Part shown: positions 11,991 to 59,652 of the stretch, piece by piece
Layout: the number at the start of each line of letters is the position of its first letter
Position numbering within the stretch: position 1 is the stretch's first letter
DNA from: Armatimonadota bacterium
GTDB taxonomy: Bacteria; Armatimonadota; UBA5829
DNA length: 64,000 nt
Assembly: GCA_050948905.1 (NCBI GenBank)
Contig: JBMNES010000001.1
Location: 2,272,083 to 2,336,082 of the forward strand
Direction: 5' to 3'
Translations under genes and position numbers: made by a program
The notes under the pieces: generated by a model
What the model was told of the DNA's origin: nothing
Seen by the model: the letters and a program-made list of their open reading frames with translations, nothing else
Databases searched by the model: none

Positions 11991-12231
11991 TATACTGTTT
12001 ATGTAGAATTATAACAACATAATAACAACACAATTAGCACGGCAATGATACACAACGTGAAGAAGCAGGATTCAATACCCCGTACAATTACTGGAATTTC
12101 TCCACAAAGTTGACAAACACTCTTGTGCATGATAATCTTCAGTAGGGTATGCTTGGCTGCCCGTACTATCGTTGGCGCGGGCCACCACCCCGGATACCTG
12201 CTCAACAACACTTTATAAGGAGGGAATTGAA

Positions 12232-12969
12232 ATGAGGAAGTTTGTATTGCTGCTTGTGCTGTGTCTTGCGTTTGCAGGCACCCAGGCGTTGGCAGCCGTC
12301 GTTTTCACAGAAGATTGGGAAAGTGGCGGAGCCGCTTGGACAGACTATGGTGCAGGTGGCAGCATAGTCAATGACTCTGTTGCTCAACTGTTGGGCGCCA
12401 ACAATCACGCCTTTAAGACCAACGCATCACCATCAAGCGCTGCGGGCGCGAAAACTGCCGTTTTGGCCAGTGAGACTGATAAAAACTGGACTGTCACCTG
12501 GGACTTCTATCAGGCATTGCACAGCAACACTCGCGAGTATTTGCAGCTTGGTAATGATGTGGGTGGGAGCTTGCAGCAGTTGATTGCACTTGGCACTTAC
12601 AACGCTACTTCTGGGACGATTTATCAGTTCAGAGTTGTGTCTGGAAGCGTTGGCTGGGCTGATACCACCATCAACCGCATTGGTGACGCTTGGGTTCACA
12701 TGAAAGTCGAGCAGATTTACACTGCTGGAGCTCCGTCAGCTACTCTGAACTTCTATGTCAACGATGTGCTTGGCGCTTCTGTCACGACCACAAAGGTGGT
12801 CGGCCTCAGCTATCTCAGGGCAGGATCGGGCCTTAGCAATGCGGATACTTCCGCTTATTTTGACAACATCGTTGTCAAGTCGGGCGCTGTTCCGGAGCCG
12901 GGCAGCATGCTTGCTTTGGGTACTGGCCTGGTTGGCCTCATCGGCATCATTCGCCGCAAGAGAGCCTAA
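12232..12969 (+). CDS. PEP-CTERM sorting-domain protein (predicted exosortase substrate)
   Basis: Signal peptide (MRKFVLLLVLCLAFAGTQALA). C-terminus VPEPGSMLALGTGLVGLIGIIRRKRA has the PEP motif, a TM helix and a basic tail. AGGAGG before the ATG. Confidence 0.8.
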   Translation: MRKFVLLLVLCLAFAGTQALAAVVFTEDWESGGAAWTDYGAGGSIVNDSVAQLLGANNHAFKTNASPSSAAGAKTAVLASETDKNWTVTWDFYQALHSNTREYLQLGNDVGGSLQQLIALGTYNATSGTIYQFRVVSGSVGWADTTINRIGDAWVHMKVEQIYTAGAPSATLNFYVNDVLGASVTTTKVVGLSYLRAGSGLSNADTSAYFDNIVVKSGAVPEPGSMLALGTGLVGLIGIIRRKRA

Positions 12970-12996: not shown

Positions 12997-13028
12997 TGCC
13001 GCCGGTAACACAACCGGCGGCTTTTTTT
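12997..13028 (+). terminator. Rho-independent terminator of the PEP-CTERM gene
   Basis: gccgccggt-aacaca-accggcggc perfect 9-bp stem followed by ttttttt. Confidence 0.7.
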
Positions 13029-13032
13029 CGAT

Positions 13033-14050
13033 GTCCGCGATCCGAAGTTCGCTGTCCGATCATCCCGTCATTTCGAGCACCCACCCCCGTCATTTCGAGC
13101 GAAGCGAGAAATCCGCTTTTTCGATGTCCGAGGTCGGAGGTTAGAAGTCCGACCAAGTCTGGTCAGGCTTCCCACATTAGGCTACCATCCCATTATTTCT
13201 GGCTTTCGCCCCTTTCGCACTTTCGCGTTTATCCCTTCCCCGTTATCCTGCGCGCCAACTTTAATCGATGTGTGCGCCTACTTTAGTCATCCTGCGCCCC
13301 AAAACCTGTCATCCTGCGCGAAGTCGCAGGATCACGCCCTATTTAACTTACAACCTACCGAAAAAATCGTAGTGGCGGATCTCCGTCTCGGCCAATCCCT
13401 TCACAAAAGCCAATCGGTTGACGGTTATCGGCCGTCGGTTGTCAGTTCGCTCGTAACCCACCACCTATCAACAAAATCGTAGTGGCCGATCTCCGTCTCG
13501 GCCAATCCCTTCACAAAAGTCAATCGGTTGACGGTTATCGGTCGTCGGTTGTCGGTTCGCTCATAACACACCACCTATCAACAAAATCGTAGTGGCCGAT
13601 CTCCGTCTCGGCCAATCCCTTCACAAAAGTCAATCGGTTGACGGTTATCGGTCGTCGGTTGTCGGTTCGCTCATAACACACCACCTATCAACAAAATCGT
13701 AGTGGCCGACCTCCGTCTCGGCCAATCCCTTCGTCTATGCTGATTCCGGCCGGGATATAAACCTGCCCTACATTAAATAACCAGGGCGGCTTTTACCTCG
13801 AAGCCTGCCCTTGTAATTTCGAGCACCCATCCCGTCATTTCGAGCACCCACCCCCGTCATTTCGAGCGAAGCGAGAAATCCCCTTTTTCGATGTTCGAGG
13901 TCAGAGGTTAGAGGTCCGATCAAGTCTGGTCAGGCTTCCCACATTAGGCTACCATCCCATTATTTCTGGCTTTCGCCCCTTTCGCCCTTTCGCGTTTATC
14001 CCTTCTCTGCCACCCGTCGCGCAATCGCAGGATCATTCTAATAAAATATG
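13033..14050. repeat. Composite mosaic repeat locus: two 150-bp direct copies of 'module B' (13087-13236 and 13854-14004) flank tcatcctgcgc repeats and a 110-bp tandem array
   Basis: Direct reading. Module B is cgtcatttcgagcgaagcgagaaatccgctttttcgatgtccgaggtc...ctggctttcgcccctttcgc..gtttatccctt, preceded by one to three copies of cccgtcatttcgagcaccca. Confidence 0.8.
13361..13735. repeat. Tandem array of a 110-bp unit, about 3.4 copies; copies 2 and 3 are identical
   Basis: The unit is caaaatcgtagtggccgatctccgtctcggccaatcccttcacaaaagtcaatcggttgacggttatcggtcgtcggttgtcggttcgctcataacacaccacctatcaa. It contains the hairpin ggccga-tctccgtc-tcggcc and GTCGGTT-like heptamers. Confidence 0.85.
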
Positions 14051-14138
14051 GAATTTCGCGAACCTTCGTCTCTATTGATAGGTAATATTCCCTGATGTAT
14101 AATTAAACGTTCCTAGAGCTATGCGCAAGGAGGTTTGT

Positions 14139-17435: not shown

Positions 17436-17709
17436 GCGTCATTCCAGACGGATATTTGTCGTTTTGAACAGCTATCTCGTCTTGTCGAACGCCTATCCCG
17501 TCATTTCGAGCGCAGCGAGAAATCTGCTTTTTTCGATGTCCGACATCCGTTGTCCGGCGTTCGAGTGGGCAGTGTAAGATATGCGAATTGCGTTGGGTAC
17601 GACAGGCGGCGATCTCCGAATCGCATCGAAGTACGACAGGCGGCGATCTCCGAATCGCGTCATAGTACGATAGGTGGCGATCTCCGAATCGCCACCTGAT
17701 CACCCATAG
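17436..17709. repeat. Mosaic repeat locus: module-B core with hairpin and T-run (17497-17535), plus three tandem units of about 35 bp each carrying a gcgatctccgaatcgc hairpin
   Basis: cccgtcatttcgagcgcagcgagaaatctgcttttttcgatgtccga. Then (agtacgacaggcggcgatctccgaatcgc)x3; the last copy has the full stem gtggcga/tcgccac. Confidence 0.8.
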
Positions 17710-18995: not shown

Positions 18996-19418
18996 CGGTT
19001 GACGGTTAGCGGTTGACGCTTGTCGGTTATCAGTTGTCGGTTGTCAGTTGTCAGTTCGCTCAGGACCTACCACCTATCAACAAAACCGTAGTGGCCGATC
19101 TCCGTCTCGGCCAATCCCTTCAAAGGTCAATCGGTTATCGGTTGTCGGTTGCCGGTTCGCTCAGGACCTACCACCTATGATGGGTGGCGATCTCCGAATC
19201 GCCACCCCACAACCCTTCCCCGTCATTTCGAACGTCACAATCCCCGTCATTTCGAACGTCACAATCCCCGTCATTTCGAGCGCAGCGAGAAATCTGCTTT
19301 TTCCGATGTCCGAGGTCTGCCATTCGAGGTTCGATACGATGTGCTTTTTCTGGCTTTCGCGTTCTTCGCTTCCAGACGAGGTGGCAATCCCTGGTCGAAT
19401 TGCCACCCCACAACCAAA
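18996..19418. repeat. Mosaic repeat locus: GTTGTCG heptamer microsatellite, 1.5 copies of the 110-bp unit with conserved-loop hairpins, two copies of ccccgtcatttcgaacgtcacaat, and a module-B core
   Basis: Direct reading. Hairpins are ggccgatctccgtctcggcc, ggtggcgatctccgaatcgccacc and gtggcaat..attgccac. The motif gccaccccacaacc occurs twice. Confidence 0.8.
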
Positions 19419-34020: not shown

Positions 34021-34400
34021 TCTATTAACCCACCCACCTTCATTCAAATCTCCGAACCATCATTCCAACCCCGCACCGCCATTCCTCTCCTCACCATCAC
34101 TTCTCTCCCACCGCCATTCCCCTCTCCACCGGTCACTTCTCTTCCCACCTTCATTTCTCTCCCCCCACCGTCATTTCGAACGCAGTGAGAAATCCGCTTT
34201 TCCCTTCCCTCCCACCGCCCTTCTTCTCCTCCGTCCACTTCTCTTCTCAGCGTCGTTCCTCTCCTCCGGCCACTTCTCTTCCCACCGCCATTTCTCTCCC
34301 CCCTACCGTCATTTCGAACGAAGTGAGAAATCCGCTTTTTCCCTTCTCTACCTCAACAACCCATTTCCATCCGGTTTTCGTGTTCATCGTTTCCCTTCCC
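34021..34400. repeat. CT-rich degenerate tandem array of CACCG(T/C)CATTTC(TCTCC)-type units; it ends in two module-B cores, cgtcatttcgaacg(c/a)agtgagaaatccgcttttt
   Basis: Direct reading: ccaccttcattc.., ccatcattcc.., caccgccattcc.., caccatcacttctctcc.. and so on. The two hairpin-T cores are at about 34170-34203 and 34308-34342. Confidence 0.75.
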
Positions 34401-34474: not shown

Positions 34475-35389
34475 ATGAAAGATCCTTTGGATATATCTCA
34501 TGAAATATCATGTGCCTTAAACAGGGGCCAGGCGGTAGTAGCTTTAGAGTCATCGGTGCTGGCTCATGGTCTGCCTTCCCCAGTCAACATCGAAACCGCG
34601 CTTGCTATGGAACAGAATGTGCAAGAAGCTGGTGCGGTGCCTGCCACTATTGGCGTTATTGACGGCAAGATTCGTGTCGGGTTATCTCATGAGGAAATTG
34701 AAATCCTCGGCAAGGGTGGCACGGCGAAGCTGGCAGCAAGAGATCTGCCGGACGCCTGTGCCACGGAAATCAACGGGGGCACAACCGTATCCGCCACCGC
34801 TCGCATCGCAGCAGCGGTAGGGATCAACGTAATGGCGACAGGAGGAATCGGCGGAGTCCATCGCGGAAACGCAAATGATATATCTGCCGACCTTTGGGAG
34901 ATGACGCGAACGCCAATCGCCATCGTATGCTCTGGGCCTAAAGCTGTGTTGGACGTGCCGGCAACAGCAGAGTGGCTCGAATCTCACAGCGTTCCGGTTT
35001 ATGGCTTCAAAACCACCATACTGCCGGCTTTTTATGCGGCTCAAACGGACATAACTATCCCCGGCTACGACACTATCGACAAACTGGCCGACACGATCAA
35101 ACTCGGCTTTGGCGCGATGGGTGTTCGTTCTTCAATAATGGTCGCTGTGCCGGGGCCAGAGGCTTTTGATGTGTCCAGAGAAGTAGAAGAGGCGATCAAA
35201 CAAGCGGAGCAAAATCAGATAAGAGGCAAACAACTAACACCGTGGCTCTTAGATAAAATCGCCGAGTTGACGAATGGCAGGTCGATTGAGTCCAACGTCG
35301 CACTCCTCAAAAACAACGCACAAATCGCAGCAGAGCTAGCCTGCGCATTGGTTAATGAGGAGCGTCGACGAATGGGGTTCTACGCTTAG
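34475..35389 (+). CDS. psuG: Pseudouridine-5'-phosphate glycosidase
   Basis: About 300 aa. The ALESSVLAHGLP..N and GGIGGVHRG motifs match the PsuG (indigoidine synthase A-like) family. Confidence 0.85.
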   Translation: MKDPLDISHEISCALNRGQAVVALESSVLAHGLPSPVNIETALAMEQNVQEAGAVPATIGVIDGKIRVGLSHEEIEILGKGGTAKLAARDLPDACATEINGGTTVSATARIAAAVGINVMATGGIGGVHRGNANDISADLWEMTRTPIAIVCSGPKAVLDVPATAEWLESHSVPVYGFKTTILPAFYAAQTDITIPGYDTIDKLADTIKLGFGAMGVRSSIMVAVPGPEAFDVSREVEEAIKQAEQNQIRGKQLTPWLLDKIAELTNGRSIESNVALLKNNAQIAAELACALVNEERRRMGFYA

Positions 35390-37039: not shown

Positions 37040-37270
37040 TGAAACCGTTCACGTTCGGGCAGGGTCAAATAAAACTGGTTGTGCCCGAATAACAGAATAT
37101 CACGATTACGCCCGGACATGACCAAATACTGCTGGTTATGTCCGGAGCTGACCAATTGCTGCACCTTCTCATAACCCGACGGCTATCTACAATAACGTAG
37201 TGTCCGATCTCCGTCTCGGACTTTCCCTTCTCCATCATCTTGCTCACGCCGGCAAACCACCCCACAACCC
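37040..37270. repeat. Repeat locus: two long hairpins with related loops (about 37060-37175), a conserved-loop hairpin gtccga-tctccgtc-tcggac (37201-37220), and a ccaccccacaacc tail
   Basis: ccggacatgacca-aatactgc-tggttatgtccgg forms a 13-bp stem with one G.U pair. cgggca...tgcccg is a second hairpin. Confidence 0.7.
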
Positions 37271-45580: not shown

Positions 45581-45810
45581 TCTCCGTCATTACGAACCCA
45601 TCCCCTTCATTCCGAGCACCCATTTACGCCTCATCCTCTGTCATTCCGAGCACCCTTTCTCGTCATTTCGAGCGAAGCGAGAAATCTGCTTTTTCGACGT
45701 TCGAAGTCAGATGTTCGAAGTCCGATCAAGCCTTCTTAGGCTCCCTAAATTACGGTACAATAACGTTATTTCTGGCTTTCGCTTCTTTCGCGCTTTCGCG
45801 TTTATCCCTT
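45581..45810. repeat. Mosaic repeat copy (cgtcattacgaaccca-type units plus module B) inserted between purS and purB within the pur gene cluster
   Basis: ..cgtcatttcgagcgaagcgagaaatctgctttttcgacgttcgaagtc...ctggctttcgcttctttcgcgctttcgcgtttatccctt. Ends adjacent to the purB stop at 45812. Confidence 0.8.
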
Positions 45811-45811
45811 C

Positions 45812-47110
45812 TCACTCAAGCCCCAATCTCTCAAACACCCTGTCCACATTCCTCAAATGGTGCGCCAGATCGAAGCAATCGTCCAATTCTTCCTTATTCA
45901 GCAGCCTCTGTACGTCTGCGTCGCCCTCCAGCGCCTGCCGGAACGAGACATCCTCATCCCAGCACCTGGCCGCATTTCTCTGACAAACCTTATAGCCTTC
46001 CTCGCGAGTCATCCCCTTCTGGATCAGCGCCAGCAGCACGTGCTCGCTAAAGACCAACTGGCCCATCATCTCCAGATTGCGCTTCATATTGTCCTGATTA
46101 ACCTCCAGCCTATCCAGCAGTTTCGCCAGAGACTGAAGCATAAAATCCACCGCAAAGAAGCTATCGGCGATTATGATCCTCTCAGCCGCCGAGTTGACCA
46201 GATCCCGCTCATGCCAGCTTACGATATTGTCCAAAGCGGGGTGTGCATTTGCCCGCACCACCCTGGCCAATCCGCATATAGTCTCAAATCTCCACGGGTT
46301 TCGCTTATGCGGCATAGCCGAGGAACCACGCTGTCCCGGCAGGAACATCTCCTGCACCTCGAGTATCTCCGTGCGCTGCAGGTTCCTCATTTCAGTCGCG
46401 ATGTTGTCGCAGGTCGAGGCCAGTATCGCCAGCCTGGCTATCACCGCAGCGTGCCTGTCGCGCTGGATAATCTGAGTCGAGATCGGAGCTGCCTGAAGCC
46501 CCAGCTTCTCGCAGACCATCTCTTCCTGATCCGGCCCGATATTGCCGAATACTCCCACCGCGCCGGATATTTTGCCGACGCTGATCTGCTCGCGGGCGTC
46601 TTTAATTCGTGCCAGATCCCGTTGAAGCTGAGAGTAATGCACAGCCATCTTAAAACCGAATGTGATCGGTTCTGCCTGCACGCCGTGGGTCCGGCCAATC
46701 ATCGGGGTCATTTTATGCGCTTTCGCCAGTCTCGCCACCACATCCAGCAGGTTTTCAATATCTTTGATAATAATATCGCAGGCCTGCCTCATTCGCAGCG
46801 CGGTCGCCGTGTCTTCGATGTCGTAGCTGGTAACGCCGTAGTGGACATATTTGCCCTCGTCGCCAAGGTTTTCCGTGACGCATTTGACGAAGGCTATCAG
46901 GTCGTGGTGGGTCTCTTTTTCAATTTCATCTATGCGCTCAACAGAGAACGTCGCCGACTTACGAATCTTCTCCGTCACTCCAGGCGGTATATTGCCGAAC
47001 TTCTCCTGTGCCTCACAAACCGCCAGCTCGACATCAAGCCAGCTCTGAAACTTGTTCTGCTCACTCCAAACGGCCTTCATCTCAGGCAGCGAATATCTCT
47101 CTATCATCAA
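45812..47110 (-). CDS. purB: Adenylosuccinate lyase
   Basis: 432 aa fumarate-lyase superfamily protein with a PurB-type C-terminal domain. TTG start. Confidence 0.9.
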   Translation of the reverse strand: MMIERYSLPEMKAVWSEQNKFQSWLDVELAVCEAQEKFGNIPPGVTEKIRKSATFSVERIDEIEKETHHDLIAFVKCVTENLGDEGKYVHYGVTSYDIEDTATALRMRQACDIIIKDIENLLDVVARLAKAHKMTPMIGRTHGVQAEPITFGFKMAVHYSQLQRDLARIKDAREQISVGKISGAVGVFGNIGPDQEEMVCEKLGLQAAPISTQIIQRDRHAAVIARLAILASTCDNIATEMRNLQRTEILEVQEMFLPGQRGSSAMPHKRNPWRFETICGLARVVRANAHPALDNIVSWHERDLVNSAAERIIIADSFFAVDFMLQSLAKLLDRLEVNQDNMKRNLEMMGQLVFSEHVLLALIQKGMTREEGYKVCQRNAARCWDEDVSFRQALEGDADVQRLLNKEELDDCFDLAHHLRNVDRVFERLGLE

Positions 47111-59275: not shown

Positions 59276-59331
59276 CAAAAAAGGCTCCCCAGTCCTGGCG
59301 GACTGGGGAGGAGAAAAGAGGGTGGGAAGGT
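59276..59331 (-). ncRNA. Candidate small RNA 1 (C/U-rich, ends in a canonical intrinsic terminator), minus strand
   Basis: Minus-strand sequence ..gcaaaccuucccacccucuuuucuccuccccaguccgccaggacuggggagccuuuuuu. An 11-bp perfect stem plus U6. A tatatat -10-like box lies just upstream. No minus-strand CDS exists for it to terminate. Confidence 0.35.
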
Positions 59332-59430
59332 TTGCTACTATATATACGACACAACGTTTGGGAATGTTCCACTTTCTTGAAAAAAAGATACTAATGAATC
59401 AGAAAAGTGCATAACGAACAACAAAGACAC

Positions 59431-59486
59431 AAAAAAGCTCCCCAGCCCTGGCGGACTGGGGAGGAGAAAAGAGGGTGGGAAGGTTT
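59431..59486 (-). ncRNA. Candidate small RNA 2, paralogous tandem copy of sRNA 1 (one stem mismatch)
   Basis: Second copy of the same ~75-bp element about 155 bp downstream: aaaaaagctccccagccctggcggactggggaggagaaaagagggtgggaaggtttgctattatatatacgac. Confidence 0.3.
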
Positions 59487-59652
59487 GCTATTATATATAC
59501 GACGCAGCTAATTGGTTCGTTCCACCCATTTTCAGAAAATAATTTGCCGATGATTTATCCACGTGGTAGAATTGAGAGTAGCCGAGAGGCAGTCCACTTG
59601 CATTGAAGTGGATATCAATCGAACAGACACCACACGTCAAAGGACTTATATA

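Follow-up and report, generated by a model that had tools for sequence, protein, structure and literature searches.

The window, as we call the whole 64,000-nt stretch analysed here (contig JBMNES010000001.1, positions 2,272,083 to 2,336,082, from an Armatimonadota bacterium), carries a family of short hairpins, and this report concerns those hairpins and their probable relation to repetitive extragenic palindromes (REPs) and REP-associated tyrosine transposases (RAYTs). All copies are intergenic. They occupy the spacer from the gene for a PEP-CTERM protein to gatC, that from gatB to an FAD oxidoreductase gene, that from the latter to a transketolase gene convergent with it, and the region upstream of queC. 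The 13-kb cluster is preceded by the terminator that belongs to the gene upstream (12998-13021) and followed by a promoter-like site for gatC (14075-14103). An original prediction, made by reading the window's letters, had singled out a hairpin at 13483 with an invariant loop and covarying stems. That hairpin is present as described and lies far above chance. Its core, CGATCTCCGWMTCG, has eight exact matches (at 13487, 13597, 17610, 17644, 17678, 19096, 19188 and 37205), all on the + strand and between genes; the number expected by chance is 0, and the core was absent from 100 of 100 dinucleotide-preserving shuffles of the window.

With degenerate copies counted by looser searches, the window holds six type A hairpins, four type B hairpins and one B-like variant. 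Type A reads GTAG-TGKCCGA-tctccgtc-TCGGMCA, with loops starting at 13380, 13490, 13600, 13710, 19099 and 37208, and type B reads GAT-NGGTGGCGA-tctccgaa-TCGCCACCN, with loops starting at 17613, 17647, 17681 and 19191; the family-wide consensus of type B is GAT-NGGYGGYGA-tctccgaa-TCRCCRCCN. Both types have closing GA/TC pairs and an 8-nt loop that begins TCTCCG, on stems of 6-7 bp in type A and 9 bp in type B. Folded as DNA, the hairpins have energies of -5.0 to -11.9 kcal/mol, and full copies reach z-scores of -3.9 to -5.0 against shuffles; the copy at 37198-37221, with its 6-bp GTCCGA stem, reaches only -1.95, and 12 of 200 shuffles fold equally well.

The first four type A copies lie in a tandem array of a 110-bp unit (13363-13732; 3.4 copies, 97% matches, score 691), which like every element described in this paragraph and the next is on the + strand. 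Each unit consists of the A hairpin, aatcccttcacaaaag, a heptamer run (TCGGTTG)n, tcgctcataacacaccacctatcaacaaaatc and then GTAG. Unit 1 has a degenerate copy (13369-13394, hairpin 13373-13394) in which GTAG is followed by TGGCGGA-tctccgtc-TCGGCCA, with one G.G stem mismatch. The hairpin of the original prediction is the second (13479-13504): after GTAG come TGGCCGA (13483-13489), the loop tctccgtc (13490-13497) and TCGGCCA (13498-13504), making a 7-bp stem and an 8-nt loop that fold as DNA at -7.4 kcal/mol (z -3.9). The third copy (13589-13614) has the same sequence, and the fourth (13699-13724, hairpin 13703-13724) has the loop variant cctccgtc (CCTCCGTC). Thus, the sites listed in the original prediction are real, but those at 13483 and 13593 are neighbouring copies of one tandem repeat and so are not independent instances; likewise the loop is fixed in the wider set of hairpins, but the CCTCCGTC copy means that it is not strictly invariant. 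The remaining type A copies are one downstream of the FAD oxidoreductase gene (19088-19113), also present in the close relative L050, and a solitary one upstream of queC (37198-37221) that carries a compensated stem allele, GTAG-T followed by GTCCGA-tctccgtc-TCGGAC (-5.0 kcal/mol).

Three of the type B hairpins, with loops at 17613, 17647 and 17681, form a 34-bp tandem array (17597-17692, or 17597-17697 with the whole of the last hairpin), in which only the last copy has the full 9-bp stem AGGTGGCGA/TCGCCACCT and the other two keep the inner GCGA/TCGC (4 bp). The fourth belongs to an 86-nt block (19135-19220) made up of a heptamer run, tcgctcaggacctaccacctat, GAT, the hairpin GGGTGGCGA-tctccgaa-TCGCCACCC (19182-19207) and a tail. 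The B-like hairpin (19380-19407), GGTGGCAA-tccctggtcgaa-TTGCCACC, has a 12-nt loop, stands just beyond the stop codon of the transketolase gene and is kept in L050. Overall, the hairpins are embedded in mosaics with (TCGGTTG)n heptamer runs, a CCCGTCATTTCGAGCGMAGCGAGAAATC module and a 195-nt repeat.

The heptamer runs lie directly upstream of type A hairpins (window 13524-13557, 13634-13667, 18996-19056 and 19131-19157). The heptamer is (TCGGTTG)n in the window versus (CCAACTT)n in a close relative, the metagenome-assembled genome (MAG) CAZBSI01 (for example, L034 6125-6160). Such runs bring to mind the heptameric short tandemly repeated repetitive (STRR) sequences of cyanobacteria.

Within the window alone, the evidence for covariation comes down to three stem alleles, GGCCGA, GTCCGA and GTGGCGA. 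We therefore rely on two wider scans, which together gave about 220 related hairpins. The first covered species-representative genomes other than the window's own, with four stem positions free in each arm, and returned 48 stretches. All 14 hits in the Armatimonadota MAGs CAZBSI01 and JAAYKE01 are perfect palindromes, with stems GGCCGA/TCGGCC or GTCCGA/TCGGAC, and every examined locus of these two MAGs has further copies, among them type B hairpins with the fully compensated stems AGGTGGCGA, GGGTGGCGA, CGGTGGCGA, CGGCGGCGA, AGGCGGCGA and GGTGGTGA. Outside Armatimonadota there are 34 hits, each at a locus of its own. Most of them are not palindromic, and the few with five of six stem positions paired or with a 5-bp inner stem are within what chance would give. 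For the second scan, over metagenome contigs, the pattern fixed the type B loop together with the G pairs of its 5' arm and left the 3' arm free; it returned 112 loci.

To measure covariation in type B, we defined membership by the loop and four fixed G-C positions only and examined the three free pairs in 94 hairpins of unique context, against 2000 shuffles. The outer pair is Watson-Crick in 91 of 94 (A-T 38, G-C 46, C-G 7), where the shuffles have a mean of 40 and a maximum of 55. For the middle pair the count is 88 of 94 (T-A 81, C-G 5, A-T 2; shuffle mean 75.7, maximum 83), and for the inner pair 84 of 94, with a further 7 T.G (C-G 78, T-A 3, G-C 3; shuffle mean 72.9, maximum 78). In type C, the third kind of hairpin, the tctccgaa loop of type B sits on a stem of 5 bp (CGGGA/TCCCG, CCGGA/TCCGG or CGGGG/CCCCG). 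A type C hairpin comes after a type B hairpin in 64 of 101 cases, and the linker between them measures 10 nt in 47 of the 59 contexts that are unique. All 59 have a Watson-Crick closing pair (A-T 37, G-C 22), compared with a shuffle mean of 31. The covarying stems on a fixed loop that the original prediction proposed are thus borne out by shuffle tests on 94 type B and 59 type C hairpins, and, as membership was defined independently of the tested pairs, this covariation supports its further claim that selection acts on the hairpin.

Type A occurs in two stem alleles, G-C and T-A, which are invariably paired in the relatives' copies, and GTAG always stands directly 5' of the stem. In type B, by comparison, 88 of 94 copies have GAT rather than GTAG at this place, and when the two types are aligned by their loops the T and G of the type B head (AT-N-G) fall on the same positions as in GTAG. 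Type A is confined to the window's clade (the window, CAZBSI01, JAAYKE01 and LSQX01), where it occupies the position that the type C hairpin has at 50 loci of other lineages.

The related contigs connect these hairpins to an enzyme. By motif search in six-frame translations we found a 179-aa open reading frame (ORF) in each of L066 and L070, placed exactly between two inverted type B matches. Both ORFs match NCBIfam NF047646 (REP_Tyr_transpos, REP-associated tyrosine transposase) with 98.1 bits (cut-off 80, E 4e-28) and Pfam Y1_Tnp weakly, with 21 bits, just under its cut-off. Nine homologues, combined in a profile, share an invariant HUH motif (MPTHxHA) and an invariant tyrosine motif (YxHxNPxRK), and the profile's sole match in the PDB is 4ER8, the E. 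coli TnpArep bound to a REP (E 2e-10). One homologue, from an Armatimonadota bacterium, bears the NCBI name REP-associated tyrosine transposase; another belongs to Armatimonadetes bacterium RBG_16_58_9.

Altogether we read ten distinct RAYT loci (L061, L066, L070, L165, L182, L164, L167, L171, L180 and L181), seven of which were reached through the protein alone and not through the DNA pattern; the gene encodes 179-180 aa. An inverted doublet of type B and a second hairpin is found on every flank that the contig reaches, that is, on both sides at eight of ten loci and on one side at L061 and L181, where the contig ends. At L070 the order is GAT-GGGTGGCGA-tctccgaa-TCGCCACCC, a 10-nt linker, CCGGGA-tctccgaa-TCCCG(a), the RAYT gene and a mirror-image doublet; the outermost position of the second hairpin is a C.A mismatch, leaving a 5-bp stem. 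The flanks of L070 and L165 carry GATGGGTGGCGATCTCCGAATCGCCACCC, identical to window positions 19179-19207. Loop and enzyme go together: TCTCCGAA is the loop at five RAYTs with 74-98% identity to that of L070 (81% over 111 aa for the cut ORF of L061), and TTTCCGAA is the loop at five with 55-61% identity to it and a one-residue insertion. Flanking of RAYT genes was seen for types B and C only. A recognition site for a RAYT had been among the functions first suggested for the hairpin, and it gains support from the type B hairpins, with the same loop or its TTTCCGAA variant, that flank the RAYT inverted at ten of ten loci. We had also considered a Dam site, given the GATC at the stem-loop junction, and dropped it because the TTTCCGAA lineage lacks GATC.

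In one lineage (L167-L170), the RAYT is followed downstream by genes for a ParB-like protein, a D12-class methyltransferase and a PRTase-CE protein. These surroundings may be a defence or mobile-element neighbourhood.

Since the RAYT genes are flanked by inverted type B doublets whose loop tracks the RAYT subgroup, we consider it likely that the hairpins are the REPs of an Armatimonadota lineage, in two sequence types, and part of a REP/RAYT system. We infer that a RAYT has acted, in the past or at present, on the window's own copies, and type A would be a substrate as well. The loop is the presumed determinant of recognition, by analogy with the E. coli system and from the correspondence between loop and enzyme. 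If the system works as E. coli TnpArep does, the palindrome would extrude as a hairpin on single-stranded DNA, and the RAYT, an HUH/Y1 enzyme, would bind it and cleave and rejoin beside it, spreading or rearranging copies. The enzyme may read the loop and the closing pairs, which would therefore stay fixed, while the rest of the stem need only pair and could drift by compensatory change. In the window's clade, tandem duplication of whole units has multiplied the elements further.

Several observations weigh against this interpretation. A tblastn search of the 64-kb window and of about 130 kb of loci from its clade detected no RAYT, and among the 120 RAYT homologues listed none is on the 3.05-Mb contig of the window genome. 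The search for a RAYT gene that the original prediction had called for was thus successful in related contigs, where the gene is hairpin-flanked, but not in the window or its clade's loci. Strains that bear REPs and have lost their RAYT are known (PMC3733652). Across the ten RAYT loci, type A was never seen beside a RAYT, and the clade lacks type C. Within the window's clade, adjacent hairpins share a strand in all 23 of 23 cases and do not form inverted doublets (REPINs), the presumed mobile unit. Tandem duplication of composite units, which requires no transposase, accounts for much of the local copy number. Two further points concern how the counts are to be read. The loop was fixed in the patterns of both scans, so its constancy is judged from incidental hairpins and from the protein-anchored loci; and compensated alleles may spread by copying, so the counts of paired copies are counts of sequences and overstate the number of independent events.

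As a RAYT might have stood between inverted hairpins in the clade loci L014, L031 and L051, these were read individually. It is not there: they carry only HTH/IrrE/GyrB, IMP dehydrogenase, PEP-CTERM, Mu-type portal, terminase and creatininase genes. L051, which belongs to CAZBSI01, has type A hairpins at 1138 and 2696, between the Mu-type portal and large terminase genes of an apparent prophage, and the repeats therefore also colonise phage-derived DNA.

Comparison with relatives shows how quickly the elements turn over. The window's FAD oxidoreductase has a 100% identical counterpart in an Armatimonadota MAG, the longest contig of which measures 3.05 Mb. In a relative whose FAD oxidoreductase is 92% identical, the spacers on the two sides of the gene are 280 and 114 bp, compared with 1150 and 323 bp in the window, and the TCTCCG hairpin is absent from both; it is also absent at the orthologous site in relatives of 87% identity. 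L050, from CAZBSI01 (transketolase 98% identical in protein), keeps the type A copy at 19.1 kb and is without the 86-nt block (window 19135-19220) that bears the type B hairpin. In a second assembly of the same species, the 34-bp array has two units versus three in the window. Given these differences in presence and copy number, the elements are gained, lost and amplified over short evolutionary time. A conserved cis-regulatory element was rejected as an explanation, as the orthologous spacers of relatives lack the hairpin.

The FAD oxidoreductase gene of the window's organism also occurs as the sole gene of short-read contigs (L173-L179), which are about 1.44 kb long and break off in the repeats on either side. 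Seven such contigs are shown, one of which recurs in at least 20 samples, and the organism occurs in sewage samples.

This turnover bears on the alternative that survives best, although we think it unlikely: that no transposase was involved, that the repeats multiplied by replication slippage and unequal recombination, that template-switch correction of quasi-palindromes kept their stems paired with no part played by selection or by recognition through an enzyme, and that the likeness to the flanks of RAYT genes reflects shared ancestry only. The tandem arrays, with units of 34, 85, 110, 175 and 229 bp in the window's clade, fit such a process, as do the variation in array copy number between assemblies of one species, the shared orientation of neighbouring copies in the clade and the failure to find a RAYT there. 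However, solitary copies at unrelated loci (37198-37221, and those between the prophage genes of L051) need dispersal, and the 86-nt block is present or absent without a tandem partner. Moreover, palindrome correction works on the arms of a hairpin, which leaves unexplained why one 8-nt loop sits on the unrelated stems of types A, B and C. The loop also tracks the RAYT subgroup. Slippage with palindrome correction thus accounts for the arrays, but not for the solitary copies, the 86-nt block or the common loop.

A little less probable still is that the hairpins act chiefly as RNA, whether as stabilising or processing hairpins of 3' untranslated regions, as the ends of small RNAs or as terminators, with the covariation reflecting selection on an RNA fold. 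In the window, ten of ten copies are on the same strand as their upstream gene, and REPs of other bacteria are reported to be transcribed and to influence mRNA stability (PMC3733652). Over the co-directional intergenic regions of all loci, however, about eight copies are antisense and four sense, from rough gene calls. G.T, which would be G.U in RNA, is the commonest non-Watson-Crick state of the stems (12 of 19 cells), but transition mutations would give such an excess too. No hairpin is followed by a T-run and none was called terminator-like, and a separate terminator serves the upstream gene (12172-12969) before the array begins. Neither does the hairpin match any Rfam family, at gathering thresholds or at E<1, and orthologous sites in relatives lack it. 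The 110-nt unit, finally, folds no better than its shuffles on either strand (z -1.6 and -1.4). Small RNAs and processing sites, which the original prediction had offered as candidates, are therefore not supported, given the missing Rfam match and terminator-like tail, the mixed orientation and the lack of conservation at orthologous sites. Secondary effects on transcripts are possible, because every window copy is sense to its upstream gene.

The searches behind these statements also disposed of some related candidates. A scan for intrinsic terminators and promoters called none of the hairpins, whose tails read AATCCCTTC or CCCACAACC. For a larger structured RNA, the 110-nt unit does give alternative long-range pairings, but with the modest z-scores quoted above for its two strands. 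In Rfam 15, the whole window at gathering thresholds returned two tRNAs only, and the repeat regions at E<1 returned one chance 5.8S hit.

Finally, the loop might bind some other factor, with the arrays as sponges or architectural sites. This could be a nucleoid protein or, if GGAG(A) is read from the complementary strand (loop TTCGGAGA), a CsrA-type protein or the ribosome. The complement of the loop does show GGA/GGAG in a hairpin loop and several hairpins can stand 34 nt apart in an array. The copies, however, are scattered in either orientation and little conserved at their sites, the gene contexts offered no support, and the association with RAYT genes accounts directly for the same features; we regard this alternative as very improbable.

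We return, then, to REPs of a REP/RAYT system, and within that reading a more specific and distinctly tentative model can be put forward. In this model, recognition by the RAYT clade depends mainly on the 8-nt loop with its closing pairs; two or three hairpins whose stems are unrelated (B and C, or B and A) present that loop, which would have co-evolved with the enzyme (TCTCCGAA versus TTTCCGAA). In the window's clade, the second hairpin would have been exchanged for a GTAG-tagged one, and the elements would now spread as same-strand tandem mosaics with heptamer runs, in a genome from which the enzyme has possibly been lost. If a loop-reading RAYT and same-strand tandem mosaics are indeed combined here, the life cycle of these REPs is unlike the inverted-doublet model of REPINs.

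Other repeats share the intergenic DNA of the window. The 195-nt repeat that takes part in the mosaics has three copies of 77-93% identity (13061-13255, 13828-14022 and 45634-45828); it is composed of a GTCATTTCGAGCG module, a TTTTTCGATGTCCGAGGTC module and a CTGGCTTTCGC tail, and a related MAG shows the modules in the same order at L034. Also dispersed is CCCGTCATTTCGAGCG(A/C)AGCGAGAAATC, a repeat that forms an imperfect palindrome, ATTTC-GA-GC...GC-GA-GAAAT, in which GA faces GA. It has seven sites in the window (13080-13123, 13847-13890, 17491-17534, 19261-19304, 34161-34204, 34299-34342 and 45653-45696), often stands in short tandems, and is found also in L003 (5366-5390), in L034 and in relatives without the TCTCCG hairpin. 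By nearest-neighbour energies it does not fold significantly (z -0.5 and +0.8). Ahead of the gene at 34475, the spacer has C/T-rich 35-nt tandem repeats (TCCCACCGCCATTCCTCTCC...; 34049-34299), which adjoin two copies of a GTCATTTCGAACG module. Further on, a 95-nt repeat occurs in two copies, 87% identical (59278-59372 and 59431-59525). It opens with a very stable hairpin, GGCTCCCCAGTCC-TGGC-GGACTGGGGAG (-23.7 kcal/mol, z -4.3), preceded by an A-run, and resembles an intrinsic terminator on the minus strand. Two adjacent tRNA genes lie at 54139-54289, where G+C falls to 46%.

The class to which we assign the hairpins is already well known, and the current understanding of REPs is unchanged by the finding; what it adds is a REP family of Armatimonadota, together with its RAYT, that had not been described before. 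A literature search found no paper tying REP/RAYT to this phylum, which is poorly studied and mostly uncultured and to which the family extends such systems. It also provides a natural pair of enzyme subgroups and loop variants, suited to asking how a RAYT selects its hairpin. For genome annotation and assembly, the repeats are relevant in that they break short-read assemblies and enlarge intergenic regions about four-fold relative to close relatives.

Among known systems, the closest is the superfamily of GTAG-tagged REPs, which includes the SMAG elements of Stenotrophomonas and the enterobacterial REPs. Di Nocera, De Gregorio & Rocco (2013) report that these carry GTAG tags, vary by complementary changes in the stem, occur in clusters and as dimers, and flank RAYT genes in units termed REPtrons (PMC3733652); the main text of that paper does not mention Armatimonadota. 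Type A is likewise an extragenic palindrome of 20-26 nt with an unpaired GTAG 5' of a 6-7-bp stem, and the family likewise has complementary stem alleles, single and clustered copies, and related hairpins flanking RAYT genes. It differs in its conserved 8-nt loop, where most described loops have 2-4 nt, in the GAT(N) that takes the place of GTAG in type B, and in being embedded in mosaics with heptamer runs and other modules.

The unit in the related contigs resembles REPtrons and the complex of E. coli TnpArep with its REP (PDB 4ER8; PMC3479197) in that a single HUH/Tyr enzyme is flanked on both sides by inverted REPs and the same REPs are scattered through intergenic DNA. Here, however, each flank consists of two hairpins with unrelated stems and a shared 8-nt loop, 10 nt apart, and the subgroup of the enzyme is matched by the sequence of the loop, not by the GTAG tag alone. 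It is from related contigs, and not from the genome of the window, that the unit is known.

REPINs (Bertels & Rainey 2011, PMC3116915) find a counterpart in other lineages of the family, whose B-C doublets form convergent inverted pairs, typically 42-43 nt apart (12 convergent versus 0 divergent pairs; for example, L094). The window's clade differs, with same-strand neighbours throughout (the 23 of 23 pairs noted above) and no doublets of the REPIN type. Even where such pairs exist, the four hairpins of a doublet pair have different stems, and therefore each half folds on itself rather than joining in one long hairpin.

The BIMEs (bacterial interspersed mosaic elements) of E. coli and the BOX elements of pneumococci are modular mosaic intergenic repeats, and the REPs of BIMEs alternate in orientation. 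The family described here likewise combines hairpin modules and conserved linker modules, in variable number and order, between genes; its sequences are unrelated to theirs, and its successive REPs are direct, whereas those of BIMEs alternate.

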